Of a stretch of 64,000 bases of DNA, positions 31,011-46,273 are shown one piece after another. A program made the translations under genes and the position numbers. The number at the start of each line of letters is the position of its first letter. Positions within the stretch are counted from its first letter, which is position 1. Source of the DNA: Octopus vulgaris. Its lineage: Eukaryota. Location of the stretch: the NCBI GenBank assembly GCA_951406725.2, contig OX597815.1:6572001-6636000 (forward strand), read 5' to 3'. Below the pieces are notes generated by a model. The model worked only from the letters and a program-made list of their open reading frames with translations. It was not told the origin of the DNA and did no database searches.

Positions 31011-32242
31011 TAAATATATATATTTATATAATAAATCTTAGGGTAGCAAAAAAGTTTAGAGAAATTCTTTGCTGCCAGTGGTCTAGCAAGAAAAAATTAG
31101 TCAATAGACTATATATTATTCATATAAAAATAGTGTACATTTAAACACACAGGACATCTGACACGCTAGAAAGAGTAGTTAAACTACAAACCACTAATTT
31201 TTCATTCCCTTTCAGAATTACAACTATTAGTGGTTTATAGTTTAACTACTCTTTCTAGCGAGTCAGATGTCCTGTTATGTTCATCTCATGTGTTTAAATG
31301 TACACTGTTTTTTATATATATATATTTATATATGTGTGTATATGTGTGTGTGTGCGTATATCTATATATCTATCTACATACATGTATGTATGTATGTGTT
31401 TATGTAAGTAGATATTCTAAAGGAAGATGGATGAGGCAGAAAAAGGGAAGTGAGGCTTACAAAAGTGATGTGTTTGCACAATTTGATTGCTGTCAACCAC
31501 AAAGTATTTTATACTAAACAGACACAAACACAAAGAAGCCGAGAGCAAAGTGCTAGTAGCAGCATTAATCCCTCTACAGTGGATTAACAAAAAAAGTGTT
31601 TAAAATTCTTAACAAATAAATAAAAGCAGTAATCCCAAACAATAATCCCACAACATAATACTGATTGATAATGTATTTGGACAGATTAAGGAAATCCACC
31701 ATGAATTAAATACAGTGTTTAGTTATATTTAAGAAGTCACACATGTCCAGTAGATACGGAGATAACTGTGCTGAATTATATACAAAGAAAAACCTGTTGT
31801 TTTAGGGGCCACTGGAGTTGGATTTCTGAATGTCCTAGTCTAATTTTCTTTATGACCCTAACACATCGGTCCTGAATATAAAATTATTCAGATGACAAAT
31901 TGAGGAAGAAATCGATGAAGATGTGATGTCTGCCGTTCACTCAAGCAGTTACTACATGTTTCTGGACTCTCGTATTTTAAATACTGTTTTCTGTTCTCTT
32001 GTTTCGTTGATGACACTTTATAAGATAACAATGCAACAACCCACCAAAGGATTTTGGAAATCTATAAAGGACTAAGACACTGTTGTTGGGGATTTTATCA
32101 AAGGTCTGTATCTTCTTCGTAAATTATTGTCTTTCCTAACATTAGCCCTCCACACGGGGCCTCTTCAAAACAGCAATCGTACACACTCAGCAACAGTACT
32201 TTCCCATGATAGCAACTTTTCCTGACAACACCTCATCACAGC

Positions 32243-34090
32243 AGTACATCTCTCCACAATGCTACATCCCTATAATAGTACCTCTCTATCACAGTACCTC
32301 TCTCTACAATGCAACATCTCTGTAATAGTACCTCTCTACCACAGTACCTCTCTCCACAATGCTACATCTCTATAATAGTACCTCTCTACCACAGTACCTC
32401 TCTACCACAGTATCTCTCTCTACAATGCTACATCTCTATAATAGTACCTCTCTACCACAGTACCTCTCTACCACAGTATCTCTCTCTACAATGCTACATC
32501 TCTATAATAGTACCTCTCTACCACAGTACCTCTCTCTACAATGCTACATCTCTATAATAGTACCTCTCTACCACAGTACCTCTCTCTACAATGCAACATC
32601 TCTATAATAGTACCTCTCTATCACAGTACCTCTCTCTACAATGCAACATCTCTATAATAGTACCTCTCAACCACAGTACCTCTCTCTACAATGCTACATC
32701 TCTATAATAGTACCTCTCAACCACAGTACCTCTCTCCACAATGCTACATCTCGATAATAGTACCTCTCTACCACAGTACCTCTCTCTACAATGCAACATC
32801 TCTATAATAGTACCTCTCTACCACAGTACCTCTCTCTACAATGCAACATCTCTATAATAGTACCTCTCTACCACAGTACCTCTCTCCACAATGCAACATC
32901 TCTATAATAGTACCTCTCTACCACAGTACCTCTCTCCACAATGCTACATCTCTATAATAGTACCTCTCTACCACAGTACCTCTCTCCACAATGCAACATC
33001 TCTATAATAGTACCTCTCTACCACAGTACCTCTCTCCACAATGCTACATCTCTATAATAGTACCTCTCTACCACAGTACCTCTCTCTACAATGTAACATC
33101 TCTATAATAGTACCTCTCTACCACAGTACCTCTCTCTACAATGCAACATCTCTATAATAGTACCTCTCTACCACAATATCTCTCTCCACAATGCTACATC
33201 TCTATAATAGTACCTCTCTACCACAGTACCTCTCTCCACAATGCTACATCTCTATAATAGTACCTCTCTACCACAGTACCTCTCTCTACAATGTAACATC
33301 TCTATAATAGTACCTCTCTACCACAGTACCTCTCTCTACAATGCAACATCTCTATAATAGTACCTCTCTACCACAATATCTCTCTCCACAATGCTACATC
33401 TCTATAATAGTACCTCTCTACCACAGTACCTCTCTCTACAATGCAACATCTCTATAATAGTACCTCTCTATTACAGTACCTCTCTCCACAATGCTACATC
33501 TCTATAATAGTACCTCTCTACCACAGTACCTCTCTACAATGCAACATCTCTATAATAGTACCTCTCTACCACAGTACCTCTCTCTACAATGTAACATCTC
33601 TATAATAGTACCTCTCTACCACAGTACCTCTCTCTACAATGCAACATCTCTATAATAGTACCTCTCTACCACAATATCTCTCTCCACAATGCTACATCTC
33701 TATAATAGTACCTCTCTACCACAGTACCTCTCTCCACAATGCTACATCTCTATAATAGTACCTCTCTACCACAGTACCTCTCTCTACAATGTAACATCTC
33801 TATAATAGTACCTCTCTACCACAGTACCTCTCTCTACAATGCAACATCTCTATAATAGTACCTCTCTACCACAATATCTCTCTCCACAATGCTACATCTC
33901 TATAATAGTACCTCTCTACCACAGTACCTCTCTCTACAATGCAACATCTCTATAATAGTACCTCTCTATTACAGTACCTCTCTCCACAATGCTACATCTC
34001 TATAATAGTACCTCTCTACCACAGTACCTCTCTCCACAATGCAACATCTCTATAATAGTACCTCTCTACCACAGTACCTCTCTCTACAAC
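32243..34090 (+). repeat. 50-bp minisatellite, about 36-37 copies
   Basis: Unit tctataatagtacctctctaccacagtacctctctctacaatgcaacatc. Confidence 0.97.
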
Positions 34091-34750
34091 GGTACCTTTG
34101 TAGCACAGTACCTCTCCACAAACGCAGCGCTTTGTAACTGTACCCCTCCACAGCTGTACCACTCCAAACAGCACCTCTCTGCTCAGTAAGACCCCCGCCC
34201 CACAACACGTGACAGTACCTTCCCAAGGCAGTACCTCTGCACAGCTGTACCTCTCCATTATTGTATCTCTTCCACAGCAAATGATTGATAACACCAATGT
34301 CTGTATCAACAACAACCACAACAACAACAACAACATCAGACAAAAGCAGTTTCAACATTAACAACGTCAATAACAACAGCAACAACATTAACAGATTACA
34401 GTGAATGCTGTCGCAACGATAGAAACATTGACAAAAACTACTACTACTACTACTACTACTACTACTGCTACTACCACTACTACTGCTACTACTACTACTA
34501 CTGCTGCTACTACTACTACTGCTACTTCTACCGATGCTGCTGTTGTTGTTGTTGTTGTTAAGCAACAAGACGGATAAGGGTGATTAGGTGATGGTCTAGG
34601 GCTTAGGGGCAGGAGACCCCAGACCTTGGGGGAAAAAAATACTTTGGTCGTCTTGTTGTAGTCAAGGGCTCTTCGTTGATGCCCGACACCACTGGGAAGT
34701 GACCCTCGAAGTCGCTGGAAATAGAGATCTCCAGGTCCAAATTCTGCTGC

Positions 34751-39267: not shown

Positions 39268-39668
39268 GGATTCAATTGGATTGCCCATGTTTAGTCCACT
39301 GCAGGTCAAGAGCCTCAGTATATTCTCTCCACCAAAGAAGGGCTTGAGATCTTACTGGTTTCATGAGCCCTCTCTGCCACACTGGTTCAACATGGCCTCT
39401 TTTTTTGTACTCATACCCAGGAATAATAAAATCCATTACATCAACCCCCACCCTGGCATGCTAATGATTCTGTCATATCATAGAAAGAGAGGAGGTCACA
39501 GTTGGATTGGTGTCCAAAAGGCTAGGCCCCACCTCACAGCAATGAATGAGTATTCGAGAATGTTTTGAAAGTATTTCATGGTCTAAACTTTCTCCTTTTA
39601 GATCAACAGAAACAATCTGCAGCTGAAGAAAGGGTCAAAGGACAGTGCTGACCTTTGACCCTGGGTCA

Positions 39669-39728
39669 ATGGGAAATAACATCTGTTCCTGTACGACTAA
39701 ATTCCTTGATAAACGTCCAGAAACTAAG
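39669..39728 (+). CDS. Coding exon 1 of a single-PDZ whirlin-like protein (MGNNICSCTTKFLDKRPETK); the exon starts at 39602 with 5' UTR
   Basis: Acceptor tctccttttag ends 39601. In-frame TGA at 39624-26 lies upstream of the ATG at 39669. Donor AAG|gtgagt after 39728, phase 0, joins in frame to the next exon. Confidence 0.75.
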
Positions 39729-39854
39729 GTGAGTTCCTAGAATGTGTCTTTTTTTTCTTTTTTTATCATCAATCATTAATCATCATGGTTTTACATCCAC
39801 TTTCCCATGCTGGCATGAGTTGGACAGTCATCACAATCATTCATTCATTAAGAA

Positions 39855-40920
39855 ATACATACGTGTACGTACCTACATACATTCATGCATACATACAACA
39901 TACATACATACATGCATGCATGCATGCATACATACATACATAGAACATACATACATACATACATACATACATGCATGCATACATACAAACACACATACAT
40001 ACATACATACAACATACATACATACATGCATGCATACATACATACATACATACATACATGCATGCATACATACATACATACATGCACGCACACATACTTA
40101 CATACATACATGCATGCATACAAACACACATACATACATACATACAACATACATGCATACATACATGCATACATATATACATGCATACATACATACATAC
40201 ATACATACAACGTACATACATACATACATACATACATACATGCATGCATACAAACACACATACATACATACATACAACATACATACATACATACATACAT
40301 GCATGCATACGTACATACATACATACATACATACATACATACATACATACATACATACAACATACATACATACATACATACATGCATGCATACGTACATA
40401 CATACATACATACACACATACATACACACAGGCACGCACACACACATATATACATGCATGCATACATACATGCATACATACATACATACATACATACATA
40501 CATAAATGCATACATACATACATACATACATACATTCACACATGCATACATAAATGCATACATACATACATACATACGTACATGCGTACATACATACATA
40601 CATACATACATACATGCATACATACATGCATACATACGTACATGCATACATACATACATACATACATACATACATAAATGCATACATACATACATACATA
40701 CATACATACATTCACACATGCATACATAAATGCATACATACATACATACATACGTACATGCGTACATACATACATACATACATACATAAATGCATACATA
40801 CATACATACATACGTACATGCGTACATACATACATACATACATACATACATGCATACATACATGCATACATACATACATACATATATACATGCATACATA
40901 CATACATACATACATACATT
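39855..40920 (+). repeat. Degenerate (CATA)n/(CATG)n microsatellite in a PDZ-gene intron
   Basis: Direct inspection. Confidence 0.95.
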
Positions 40921-41130
40921 TGTTATAAGTTGTTATAAGTCCAAAAGAAAGCAAACTCTAATAAATTGTTTTGACCAGTAATATCTAAAGTGGTCATTGA
41001 TTATGACCAGTCAGAAAGTTAACATTGATCTCACATCTATAATGGCTCTTAGCAATATAGACAATTTGCCAGATCTGCTGGCCTCGGAGCATTTTATCAC
41101 AGCCATTGCTAACCATGACTGCAGTCTTAC

Positions 41131-41187
41131 CTTCATTAGTGAAGAGGGGTTATGTGCCTCCATTCTGCAGCATATCTGACAAGTCAC
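41131..41187 (-). CDS. Candidate 57-nt exon (VTCQICCRMEAHNPSSLMK in phase 0, or GDLSDMLQNGGT* in phase 1)
   Basis: tatacag acceptor and AAG|gtaaga donor, in unique non-repeat sequence. Confidence 0.4.
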
Positions 41188-41241
41188 CTGTATATCAGTT
41201 TGGTAAGAAAGTTCTTGGACATTTTTAGCATATCACTTCAT

Positions 41242-41422
41242 TAACACACTCACCGGTAAAATTTCCACTTTTTTCTTATTTTTATTTTCCTAAAATTTTC
41301 GCTGCATCTTGCAACCTTTTCAATAGAGTCAAAACTATTGAAAAGGTTGCAAAAGCACATAATGAAAAGTTTAGGACAATAGAAATAATAAATAAGTGGA
41401 AATTTTACCAGTGAGTGTGTTA
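41242..41422. mobile_element. MITE with 29-bp TIRs and an internal hairpin
   Basis: taacacactcaccggtaaaatttccactt and aagtggaaattttaccagtgagtgtgtta (one mismatch). Confidence 0.8.
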
Positions 41423-41566
41423 CATTATAAGGTACAAAAAGAAAATTACTCTCTGCAGACACAACAGAATATGCTTCAACACACAAACTCATATTAAGAA
41501 TCTTGCAAACCAAATCCAAAAACAAAATACTTTATTAACAATTAAAAAAACAACAACAAAGAACAA

Positions 41567-42190
41567 TCAATCCAAAAGGTAATCACCCTTGTTATTGATC
41601 ACCTTTTGCCATCTTTCAGGTAAAGTTTTGAATCCTTTTATCCAGAAATCACGTGGCTTTGAATCAGTAAAGTCGTTAAGGAACGATTTCACATCTTCTT
41701 CGTTTTCAAACTCTGTAACGCCAATCGCACATTGCAAGGTAGAGAATAAGTGGTAGTCAGAAGGGGCAAGATCAGGAGAATACGGTGGGTGCACCATAAT
41801 TTCCCAGTCCGCCTCCTTCAGCTTCTCTGACGTCTTCTTTGCACGATGTGCTGGCATGTTGTCTTGGTGGTAAATTATCTTCTTCAAATTTGAGCGGTTT
41901 TTCTGGCCAGCGCAATCTTTAGACGGTCAATTTGTTCACAGTAGATAAAACAGTGGTATTATGTGGGAGAAGGTCCAAAATGATCACACCATGGCAATCC
42001 CACCATGGCAATCCCACCAAACTGAGATCATAACCTTCTTTTGCACAAGCGGTCCTTTTGGTAAAGGTTTTGGTTGTTGACCTTTGCTACACCAGGATCG
42101 TCTGCACCTCACATTGGAGTACAATACCCACTTTTCATCCATAGAAATTACTGACTCCAACCAATCGAATCTTCGGCTTTGATAACAGAT
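41567..42190 (-). mobile_element. Mariner transposase catalytic-domain pseudogene
   Basis: MDEKWVLY, KKVMISVWWD, HQDNMPAH and HPPYSPDLAPSDYHLF motifs, frameshifted. Confidence 0.92.
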
Positions 42191-42288
42191 GTACATTTAC
42201 TTGACCAGGGCTGACCTGGGGCTAAACAACCACATTTTTAATGCTAAGAAAGTATTTGTCGCTTAAAAAATCCATTTTTCAATTTCAG

Positions 42289-42435
42289 GAACAGAAAGAG
42301 AAAAGATTAAAGAAGACCTATGGCAATATCCCACTGCAAGAAGTTGTCATTTATAAAGTGATGCCGACTTTAGGTTTGGCCATTGAAGGTGGCATCAATT
42401 CCAGTCAGATGTTTCCTCGGGTCTTTGCAATCCAG
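42289..42435 (+). CDS. Coding exon 2: N-half of a PDZ domain resembling whirlin/PDZD7 PDZ3 (EQKEKRLKKTYG...KVMPTLGLAIEGGINSSQMFPRVFAIQ)
   Basis: Acceptor tttttcaatttcag, donor CAG|gtaaga, 147 nt, phase 0-0. TLGLAIEGG matches the whirlin PDZ3 carboxylate-binding loop (TLGIAIEGG, recalled). Confidence 0.9.
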
Positions 42436-43190
42436 GTAAGACATTCTCTACTGTAACTATTTGTTTAATCCAAGTTGAATTTAACTTTGACTCAGTCTTG
42501 ATTCCAAAGAAAATGGTAATGGTGCCAACATCAGTGGAAGCAATAATATACCAAACAGAAGGCGGCAGACTGGCAGGAATGTTAGCACACTGAGTGAAAT
42601 GCTTAGTGGTATTCCGTCTGTCTTTACGTTCTGAGTTCAAATTCTGCCAAAGTTGACTTTGCCTTTCATCCTTCCGGGGTCGATAAATTAAGTAAAATAA
42701 CTTAGTTATCATTAAGGTAGTGTTAGGAACATAAATTGTGACTAAGGTTTGGAGGAAGATTTTAATTCAAAACTTTTGAAAAACAAGACATTTGTATTAC
42801 AGAGCCAGAGGTGGTTTCAGCCGGATTGGTAATGAAAGGGTTAAGAATTGCTTCTCTATTATATATTTTAACCCTTTTGTTACTGTATTTATTTTGAGAT
42901 GCTCTGTGTTTCCTTCAATTAATTTTAAATATAACAAAGAATTTAGTAAAATAACATTCAGCTAGTGTTAGGAACATAAATTGTGACTAAGATTTGGTGG
43001 AAGATTTTAATTCAAAACTTATGAAAACAAGACATTTGTACTTCAGAGCCAGCTGGGTTGGTATCAAAAGGATTAAGAATCAATTTGTTCCTCGTATTTG
43101 AGATGATCTGACTTTGAAATTAATCTTTTTTTAGCCTCACTCATTTTATTTTTTATTTACTTTTTTTTTTTTTTTTGGTTTCTTTTGCAG

Positions 43191-43391
43191 CCAAATGGTT
43201 CCACATTTTACTCAAAGACTGACCTGAAGGTGGGCAACATACTGTTGGAAGTGAATGGCACCTGCCTGGTGGGACTTCAGCACAGTGAGGTGGCAGCAAA
43301 CATTGCCAACGCCTTTTTGGATGAAACTCAAGATTACCTGACATTCTTGGTTACTGAGGATGGATGGCAGCCAAAGACTAGCAGCCTTTGA
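43191..43391 (+). CDS. Terminal coding exon 3: C-half of the PDZ domain and C-terminus -KTSSL*
   Basis: Long poly-T tract and ttttgcag acceptor. LKVGNILLEVNG...H.EVA..IA.AF....DYLTFLVTE parallels whirlin LKVGHVILEVNG...DYIDFLVTE (recalled). TGA at 43389-91. Confidence 0.9.
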   Translation, partial: PNGSTFYSKTDLKVGNILLEVNGTCLVGLQHSEVAANIANAFLDETQDYLTFLVTEDGWQPKTSSL

Positions 43392-43619
43392 ATGGGTACA
43401 AAGAGGGTATGAATGAGGGAGGAAGAGGGGGAGGATGAGAGAGAGGGGGAGGATGCGAGCTGAGGAGGATTTTTTTTCTTTTACTTGTTGCAGTCATTTG
43501 ACTGTAGCCATTCTGGAGCACCACCTTTAGTTGAACAAACTGACCCCCAGGACTTACTCTTTGTAAGCCTAGTATTTATCGGTCTCTTTTGCCAAACTGC
43601 TAAGTTACAAAGACATAAA

Positions 43620-45297
43620 CACCTGCACAGGAGCCAAGTCCAGTGGCACTGGCAACGACCTCGCTCGAATGTTGTCTTTCACATGCCACCAGCACAAGTG
43701 CCAGAAAGGCGATGCTAGTAACGATCACGCTCGAATGGTGCTTTTTACATACATGGGAGCCAGTCAACAGCCCTGGCAACGATCACACTTGGATGGTGCT
43801 CTTAGTGCTCCACTAGCATGGATGCCAGTCATCAAATTTGATTTTGATTTCACTTGCCTCTGCAGGTCTTCACAAGCAGAGTTTAGTGTCCAATGAAGGA
43901 AAAGGTACGCATAGGTGGGCTGGTTACACCACTGGCATAGGCCATGAGGTTATGGTCTCACTTGGCTTGCTGGGTCTTCTCAAGCACAGCATATTTCCAA
44001 AGGTCTCGGTCACTAGTCATTGCCTCAGTGAGGCCTAATGTTCGAAGATCATGCTTCACCACTTCATCCCAGGTTTTCCTGGTTCTACCTCTTCAACAGA
44101 TTCCCTCAACCGCTAGGGTGTGGCACTTTTTCACACAGCTATCCTCATCCATTCTTGCCACATGACCATACCAGTGCAGTTGTCTCTCTTGCACACCACA
44201 ACTGATGCTTCTTAGGTCCAACTTTTCACTCAAAGTACTTACACTCTGTCAAGTATGCACACTGACATTACACATCCATCAGAGCATACTTGCTTCATTC
44301 CTTGCGAGTTTACGCATGTCCTCAGCAGTCACGGCCCATGTTTCACTGCCATGTAGCATGGCTGTTCATACACGTGTCATACAGTCTACCTTTTACTCTG
44401 AGCGAGAGGCCCTTTGTCACCAGCAGAGGTAAGAGCTCTCTGAACTTTGCCCAGGCTATTCTTATTCTAGCGGATACACTTTCAGTGCACCCTCCCCTGC
44501 TACTGTCTTAGTCACCTAGGTAATGGAAGTTGTCAACTACTTCTACTTTTTCTCCCTGGAATGTGGCGGAAGATGGTCTCTGCACATTTTCAATGTTTAT
44601 TGCTCCCGAGCATCTGCCACATACAAAAGCTATCTTCCCAATTAGCCTTCGTTTGATATTATTGCATCTCTTATGTGTCCATAACTTATACTGGGTACAT
44701 CTTATAGAGTTTCTACCTACGCGCTTTCTACAGATGTAGGACCATCTACCTGAAGAGATTTGTGGATTGTCTGCCTTCCTACTTTGGTTTTAGCTAGGTT
44801 GACTCTAAGGCCCTTCAATTCTAACCCTTGTTTCCACACTTCAAATTTCTCCTCTAGTTCTGATAGTGACTCAGCAATTAGAGCAAGGTCGTCAGCATAG
44901 AGGAGCTCCCAGGGGCATCCTGTCTTGAATTCCTCTGTTATTGCCTGGAGGACTATGATAAATAGGAGGGGGCTGAGGACCGAACCTTGGTGGACCCCTA
45001 CTTCTACCCGGAATTCTTCACTGTACTCATTGCCAACCCTCACCTTACTGACAGCGTCCCTGTATATGGCTTGCACAGCTCTCACTAACCATTCATCTGT
45101 CCCTAGTTTCCTCATCGACCACCAGATAAGGGATCGGGGGACCCTGTCAAAGGCTTTCTCCATGTTAACGAAAGCCAAGTACAGGGGCTTATCTTTGACT
45201 AGGTATTTCTCCTGCAGCTGTCTTACCAGAAATATAGCATCAGTGGTGCTTTTCCCTGGCACGAACCCAAACTGCATTTCATCTAAACTGACTCTCT
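43620..45297 (-). mobile_element. RTE-clade LINE, 5'-truncated, RT domain plus family C-type 3' end
   Basis: QFGFVPGKSTTDAIF, AFVNMEKAFDRVPR, GVHQGSVLSPLLF, LLYADDLAL (ORF 44717-45379). Confidence 0.92.
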
Positions 45298-46273
45298 CTG
45301 GGTTGGACAATTTGATCAGAGCTGGCAAGCCAAAGAGCTGCATCAGCATCATCATCATCATCATCATCATCATGAACATAACGCACAGCTTTGAATGTGC
45401 TTCCTTTCATGATCCAATGAAATCAAACAACACCATTTTTTATTGCTTTGGGGAACCAGAACAAAACATCTACCAAAACAAAACATACACTATCAAAACA
45501 CTACAAAATTTGGGGGATTATTCTGCCCTGACCCCGACTTCATCGTTAATTATGTAATTCTGTTGAAGACTAAGAGGTCATTCTAGTAGTTTTATTGGTT
45601 AACTTGTCTCTAGCAGACTCTGGCCGAGAAAACAGGTCTGAACAAAAGTTTGGCAGCAGGCAAGTTTATTTACTCATTGATAAAATGAAATACTAAGGTA
45701 TACTCATCCCTTTTTCGCTTCAATATGGTTTGTAGCCATTGTTACTGTGAGGTTGTTCATTAAGCTTTTTTGGTTCCAATATGCATGAGACGAGCCATGA
45801 TTCTATCAAACAAATTCCTTATTTTAAACTGATCTAAATTAAACCTTCCATCAAGATTCTGTCCCAAATTTCTGTCCCAAAGAACCAGCTTAAGAATGAC
45901 AAAGTATTTTACAAAATTCTTCATTATTTTTTCAAACTTAACTGGAACAAATGCAGCATATTTCAACAGAAATATGGTAAAAAAAAAAAAAAGAAATTTG
46001 AATAAAAACAATGAAAACATAAGAATCTGTGTTGATAAATTCTTTAATCTGCTGTGCTTCTGTGAACTCACAGAAGCAGAAGACACATTTGTACATCGGT
46101 CGGATAAATTATGAGTTTGGAGGAGGAATGGAACACTTTGTTCTTCTCCTTGCAAAGATTTGAAGTTGTCATGCTTGGAACTGCGTAGTTAGTCTGACAC
46201 TGCCAACTCCAGCTTCTTTTCAGCATCCAAGGAAATGTGTTGGTAAATTTAAATGCAAGCATCATGTCCTCAC

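Follow-up and report, generated by a model that had tools for sequence, protein, structure and literature searches.

How does one PDZ domain of a large scaffold come to stand as a protein of its own, and what would hold it in place? The question is raised by a short gene in a stretch of 64,000 nucleotides of the Octopus vulgaris genome (assembly GCA_951406725.2, contig OX597815.1, positions 6,572,001 to 6,636,000, forward strand). This whole stretch is called the window below and is numbered from its first letter. The gene, here named mini-whirlin, encodes a putatively lipid-anchored protein of 135 residues with a single PDZ domain, related to the third PDZ domain (PDZ3) of whirlin. It is a real, conserved gene of coleoid cephalopods, and, judging from its sequence, the product is likely an adaptor with a class I PDZ domain, tethered by lipids to the cytoplasmic side of the plasma membrane. 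Whirlin is a gene for deaf-blindness, and its long and short isoforms differ in their jobs in photoreceptors and hair cells. Coleoids possess elaborate microvillar photoreceptors and hair cells, and mini-whirlin bears on whether their sensory cells were built without the Usher 2 scaffold.

The gene and its orthologues

The spliced product (MGNNICSC...KTSSL, then stop) is encoded by three phase-0 coding exons of 60, 147 and 201 nucleotides, arranged as follows:

39602..39668, plus strand: 5' untranslated sequence ahead of the start codon, in the first coding exon, with acceptor AG at 39600-39601 and an in-frame TGA at 39624
39669..39728, plus strand: coding exon 1, 60 nucleotides, residues 1-20 (MGNNICSC...), with Gly2, Cys6 and Cys8; predicted myristoylation and palmitoylation anchor
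39729..42288, plus strand: intron 1, GT..AG, phase 0; houses a (TACA)n array and a decayed mariner-type transposase
42289..42435, plus strand: coding exon 2, 147 nucleotides, residues 21-69; basic helix 20-31, YG[NDE][IVA] motif, PDZ strands A-C and carboxylate loop (K43/PTLGL)
42436..43190, plus strand: intron 2, GT..AG, phase 0; 62% of it repeated elsewhere in the window, and absent from the contigs of three of four runs
43191..43391, plus strand: coding exon 3, 201 nucleotides, residues 70-135 and stop; remainder of the PDZ domain, helix-B His100, KTSSL tail
43392..43579, plus strand: start of the 3' untranslated region, from contig coverage

The donor sites are GTGAGT and GTAAGA, and the AG acceptors of exons 2 and 3 are preceded by tracts with 13 and 17 pyrimidines in 20 positions. 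The acceptor at 39601 (15/20 pyrimidines) points to a non-coding exon or a start lying further upstream. No ATG precedes the start codon within 39602-39668. Between the TGA at 39624 and the ATG the sole AG that would keep the frame is at 39631, with 7/20 pyrimidines against 13-17 at the true sites. The window is repeat-rich animal DNA, and each of the three exons occurs in it only once. The initial annotation, made from the letters alone, had proposed three canonical exons joining into 135 residues and an in-frame stop upstream of the ATG in the same exon. The splice sites, the TGA and an identical annotated protein bear out both proposals, and the gene model is confirmed as real.

Four sequencing runs that are probably RNA (X1, X5, X6 and X11; their RNA status is a guess) were compared with positions 40930-45300. 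In X1, X5 and X11 a single contig passes directly from exon 2 into exon 3, with intron 2 missing, so that the predicted 42435-43191 junction is seen in three of the four runs. Contigs extend past the stop codon to 43393 (X1), 43498 (X5) and 43444 (X6), and the match of the X11 contig ends at 43372 with 31 letters left over. Upstream of exon 2 the three joining contigs continue for 328, 293 and 155 letters, in each case enough to exceed the coding length of exon 1 (60 bases). All 7 of the listed coding differences between contigs and window are synonymous third positions; the table of differences omits 36 rows, and a few more differences were counted in these contigs than it displays. Altogether 14 runs with sequence of the gene were guessed to be RNA, none being recorded as such, and a run search of three same-species sequencing runs found next to no matching words from the gene.

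The exon 3 search returned a protein identical to the 135-residue product in O. vulgaris (P0001, CAI9716897.1), annotated as "whirlin-like". Identical proteins of the same annotation exist in O. sinensis (XP_036356703.1 and XP_036356704.1); the O. bimaculoides orthologue is 98% identical and that of Argonauta has 133 residues. The whole-protein search added a model from the cuttlefish Sepia pharaonis and near-identical proteins without a species label, one of them of 135 residues and found on 10 contigs. Longer Logan forms (175-224 residues with a longer tail) were read as stop read-through or intron-retaining calls, because the named cuttlefish protein and the 135-residue form on 10 contigs both end in KIGTK. 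Short orthologues of 133-135 residues thus exist in four coleoid lineages.

The PDZ domain and the two ends of the protein

The protein contains one PDZ domain, with 36 residues ahead of its first strand. Among sequences of solved structures whirlin PDZ3 matches best (expectation value, E, 3e-19), and PDZD7 matches much less well (E 3.5e-5). The AlphaFold model (mean predicted local distance difference test score 84.9) places the PDZ fold at residues 37-124 and predicts a basic helix at 20-31 with confidence, while both ends are of low confidence. In a fold search the best matches were all whirlin PDZ3 structures (6kz1, 6y38, 6y9n-q), with a root-mean-square deviation of about 1 Å over 90 columns and 44-48% identity, against 27-28% for PDZD7. 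The initial annotation had noted a resemblance to PDZ3 of whirlin or PDZD7. Sequence, fold and tree show the domain to be PDZ3 of whirlin, and sequence and fold set it apart from PDZD7. A Pfam match to PT-HINT (E 0.0024, below the cut-off) was ruled out, the fold being that of a PDZ domain.

The class I groove is shown to be intact by sequence and model: K43, the L48-G49-L50 loop and H100 at the start of helix 100-112 are present, and Leu48, Gly49, His100 and Ile107 are invariant in all 43 aligned sequences. The strand B-C loop and the helix A region are altered relative to whirlin PDZ3, and the ligand preference may therefore have shifted. The region of residues 20-35 belongs to a phylum-specific N-terminal extension of molluscan whirlin PDZ3 (basic helix plus YGxIP), whose helix is confidently modelled. 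In molluscs this extension could tune binding by the domain.

Exon 1 is a different matter. Its local alignment scores against the whirlin linker lie in the range of shuffled sequences in 55 of 57 comparisons; the remaining two, both of them cuttlefish comparisons, beat 99 or all of 100 shuffles and were treated as weak. Exon 1 was therefore rejected as a remnant of the upstream linker of whirlin, given the lack of consistent similarity, and is apparently unrelated to it. Octopod proteins start with MGNN(I/S)CSC and the cuttlefish type with MGTSCS. All four coleoid proteins match an N-myristoylation pattern (PROSITE-type and loose), as against none of 120 long whirlins. In 4/4 coleoid proteins Gly2 is kept together with a small residue 6 and at least one Cys among residues 1-8, while residues 3-16 otherwise diverge. 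Loss of an MGNxxC-type start in orthologues had been set beforehand as one result that would refute the proposal; its Gly2/Cys core survived in every one of these proteins, in support of the anchor.

From this pattern exon 1 likely anchors the protein to the membrane through lipids. Met1 would be removed and Gly2 myristoylated; a nearby Cys would then be palmitoylated, with the basic helix adding an electrostatic grip. The PDZ domain would capture proteins ending in S/T-x-hydrophobic and keep them at the membrane. A soluble PDZ remnant, in which the gene is real and the MG/Cys start is no lipid anchor, is very improbable. It would accommodate the different Cys positions (6 and 8 in octopods, 5 and 13 in cuttlefish), the looseness of the pattern and one cuttlefish model that begins further upstream. 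It would leave the retention of Gly2, the small residue 6 and the early Cys in 4/4 proteins, amid changing neighbours, to be explained.

At the other end, the proposal that the protein carries its own PDZ-binding tail holds for octopods and fails for cuttlefish. The tails S-S-L, S-S-I and S-T-L of the three octopods all fit the class I consensus, whereas the cuttlefish protein ends in KIGTK; the tail is therefore an octopod feature and not a core feature. Among other molluscan whirlin entries, some of them incomplete, only 3 of 22 have a class I ending. The octopod S-x-L/I tail might serve to hand the protein over to another PDZ scaffold or to oligomerise it in trans. A homodimer prediction with two copies fell short of its mark of 0.32, with scores of 0.01 and 0.01, which is no evidence either way.

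Derivation from whirlin

The motif YG[NDE][IVA] ahead of the PDZ domain occurs in 4/4 coleoid proteins. PDZ3 was located in 18 of the 21 other molluscs examined, and all 18 carry the motif; none of 16 non-molluscs (19 examined) does. In a tree of 28 rows the coleoid clade (support 100/100) sits on a long stem of 0.71 changes per column inside the molluscan group (88/84), and monophyly of the molluscs in the PDZ3 tree was not rejected (approximately unbiased test, p-AU 0.12). A tree of 65 rows was a quick tree, and 8 requested rows without a scoring PDZ3 match were left out of it. The coleoid core is 40-54% identical to that of other molluscs, and non-oyster molluscs are 68-83% identical among themselves. 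The coleoid PDZ domain thus appears to have gone through a burst of change followed by conservation. Two fragments of molluscan-type whirlin (P0136 and P0148), apparently single exons read into their introns, share the borders of exon 2 when judged by eye. Exons 2 and 3 therefore probably represent the final pair of exons in molluscan whirlin, preserved as genomic DNA rather than through a retrocopy.

No long form from a named cephalopod was identified among the matches listed in the searches for one. Within the window, which holds 39.6 kilobases upstream of the gene, a whirlin profile of 936 positions built from 32 long proteins matched only exons 2 and 3 among 3084 open stretches. Likewise, tblastn with 275 proteins found exons 2 and 3 only and no whirlin N-terminal exon. 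A search of 1.84 billion representatives gave 363 matches, and of the 150 listed none that exceeded 224 residues carried this PDZ variant. The molluscan motif was present in 14 of these 150: 3 of the mini type, 8 from named non-cephalopods and 3 without a label that resemble gastropod or oyster proteins. No second cephalopod PDZ3 was identified among the matches listed. A search with abalone whirlin gave, in the best 120 of 384 matches (504-1605 residues), 22 named molluscs, no named cephalopod and 4 proteins without a label, in a collection that includes five cephalopod proteomes. A metagenome scan for related loci produced 133 pattern matches, none of them confirmed. The ESM Atlas returned generic PDZ clusters only for the mini protein and chordate whirlin, PDZD7 and harmonin clusters for the N-terminal half of abalone whirlin, in neither case with cephalopod information. 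In the text of a paper on HHD phylogeny (PMC8048344) octopus, molluscs and cephalopods go unmentioned, and one supplementary file holds no matches.

With no long cephalopod whirlin and no second PDZ3 identified, truncation or fission fits somewhat better than duplication, and the suggestion of a duplicated PDZ3 in the initial annotation is weakened accordingly. On this reading the whirlin orthologue would have been truncated or split on the coleoid stem, its N-terminal half having disappeared or become a gene of its own, and a new first exon would have been placed before the PDZ3 end. For whirlin truncation or fission combined with a working lipid anchor, the chances of being right and wrong are about even. 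Mini-whirlin may be all that remains of whirlin in octopuses, the argonaut and cuttlefish. That coleoids lost long whirlin altogether and kept a PDZ3 re-tethered by lipids, so that acylation replaces the receptor-bound PDZ1-2 module, is a tentative extension that is more probably wrong. On the main reading itself the lipid would substitute for the tether that PDZ1-2 gives long whirlin on the tails of usherin, ADGRV1/VLGR1 and protocadherin-15.

Several observations weigh against truncation or fission. The fast-evolving coleoid stem is equally expected of a duplicate. Oysters and mussels are likewise missing among the best 120 of the 384 long whirlins; the search may be insensitive, and the loss of whirlin in cephalopods is therefore unproven. 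A fast-evolving or shorter N-terminal half would also escape a search that returned proteins of 504-1605 residues. Molluscan whirlin models are often broken, as in Liolophura (544 and 155 residues) and Lottia (551 and 106 residues), where in either case the scaffolds of the two pieces have the same length; PDZ3-only pieces occur in Tegillarca and Saccostrea. The Sepia pharaonis model has 55 extra residues ahead of the MG. The exon 1-2 junction (39728-42289) rests on database models and on orthologues that share the N-terminus, the contig comparison starting 3' of exon 1. Finally, the O. vulgaris entry is labelled "isoform X2", which hints at a sibling isoform; none was found.

The first of these points lead to the duplicate: a full-length whirlin would persist elsewhere, and mini-whirlin would stem from a partial genomic copy, limited to the final two exons, which acquired an anchor and now serves as a competitor or a specialised adaptor. 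A long stem branch followed by conservation is what a neofunctionalised copy would show, and the long-whirlin searches were incomplete and missed oysters and mussels too. Against this, five cephalopod proteomes contributed no named cephalopod to the best 120 long whirlins, and the listed motif carriers other than the mini type are named non-cephalopods or gastropod- or oyster-like. Duplication is on balance unlikely.

The last of these points would be expected if the locus were the 3' part of a whirlin gene that is very large and still intact, with exon 1 as an alternative first coding exon that gives an anchored short isoform from an internal promoter. Mammalian short whirlin stems from alternative starts (PMC2873905). 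Exons 2 and 3 match the 3' end of whirlin, exon 1 is preceded by its own acceptor, linker exons just upstream of PDZ3 are too divergent to detect, and the upstream sequence in the window amounts to 39.6 kilobases. By contrast, no longer protein with this PDZ variant is among the matches listed, the window contains no whirlin N-terminal exon, and in two Octopus species the pair of RefSeq accessions encodes one and the same 135-residue protein. An internal promoter is rather improbable.

Other molluscan whirlins are annotated in short pieces. Whirlin of the chiton Liolophura sinensis (P0012 and P0246) is annotated in two pieces, of which the short one starts with Met-Gly. This 155-residue piece (MGQNMD start) was considered as an older anchored form and rejected, as it fails the myristoylation pattern and lacks an early Cys. 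A broken gene model is more likely, because the partner piece of 544 residues ends just before it in whirlin order. A divergent oyster PDZ3 (57-63% identical to other molluscs) is annotated in Saccostrea as a short stand-alone protein of 149 residues (P0024), and whirlin may have been reduced a second time within the molluscs.

The remaining features of the window lie in intron 1 or outside the gene:

39866-40919: (TACA)n array in intron 1
about 41567-42196, minus strand: decayed mariner-type transposase in pieces, in intron 1 (Transposase_1 E 3e-12, DDE_3 E 1e-5)
44717-45406, minus strand: reverse-transcriptase fragment of the long interspersed nuclear element type (RVT_1 E 8e-25), 1.3 kilobases past the stop codon
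59190-59650, minus strand: unique sequence, 44% guanine plus cytosine, with open frames that overlap (91 and 140 codons) and no Pfam match; possibly the remains of an element, or else an exon belonging to another gene
32242-34116: 50-base tandem array, about 33 copies, 95% identity, strong C skew

Comparison with known systems

Mini-whirlin shares the carboxylate loop and the helix-B His with PDZ3 of whirlin (WHRN/DFNB31; dyschronic in Drosophila) and the pre-PDZ YG[NDE][IVA] motif with molluscan whirlin. It differs in lacking HHD1, PDZ1-2, HHD2 and the proline-rich linker, in its size (135 residues against about 900-1200) and in its new Gly2/Cys N-terminus. Titles in PDB describe vertebrate whirlin PDZ3 bound to peptides of myosin 15a, CASK, harmonin a1 and taperin. 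The tail of myosin 15 is a type I motif (PMC9317961), and that of cadherin-23 binds whirlin PDZ3 at about 4 micromolar (PMC7532178). Usherin, VLGR1 and protocadherin-15 instead hold long whirlin through its N-terminal PDZ domains (PMC2873905, PMC7532178). PDZD7 is a paralogous class I PDZ protein of the Usher 2 complex (PMC9317961). Its PDZ3 is of class I like that of mini-whirlin, yet at the low identity and weak E-value given above it is not the parent.

The predicted anchor resembles those of Src-family kinases and G-alpha-i subunits, which carry myristoyl and palmitoyl groups at their N-termini. Like mini-whirlin these have Gly2, a Cys within eight residues and later basic residues; the likeness is one of motif only, with no homology.

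Part of the picture is already known: the gene model stands in RefSeq under the generic name "whirlin-like", and PDZ3-only whirlin isoforms are known from mammals. In the available portions of the open-access literature, outside which most subscription journals lie, no paper was found on this gene, nor on a lineage-wide PDZ3-only whirlin, predicted to be lipid-anchored, for which no long form was detected. In the fly the whirlin homologue acts in neurons on Slowpoke channels and needs its C-terminal PDZ domain (PMC3330124); a neuronal role for mini-whirlin is therefore as conceivable as a microvillar one.

A close counterpart is mammalian S-whirlin, which likewise has PDZ3 without the N-terminal PDZ pair and is described as an adaptor that links myosin XV, EPS8 and p55 (PMC7532178). 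S-whirlin is a product of the gene that also encodes the long form, and it retains the proline-rich region (PMC2873905, PMC7532178), whereas mini-whirlin lacks that region and no long form of it was found among the matches listed; no lipid-anchor motif is mentioned for S-whirlin in the available text of either paper. As a conserved PDZ3-only form with a predicted anchor, mini-whirlin offers a natural test of PDZ3 acting alone at the membrane. It further illustrates, on a small scale, how a new protein arises when a 20-residue targeting exon is set ahead of an old domain. If coleoids did lose long whirlin, it would be a natural minimal whirlin.

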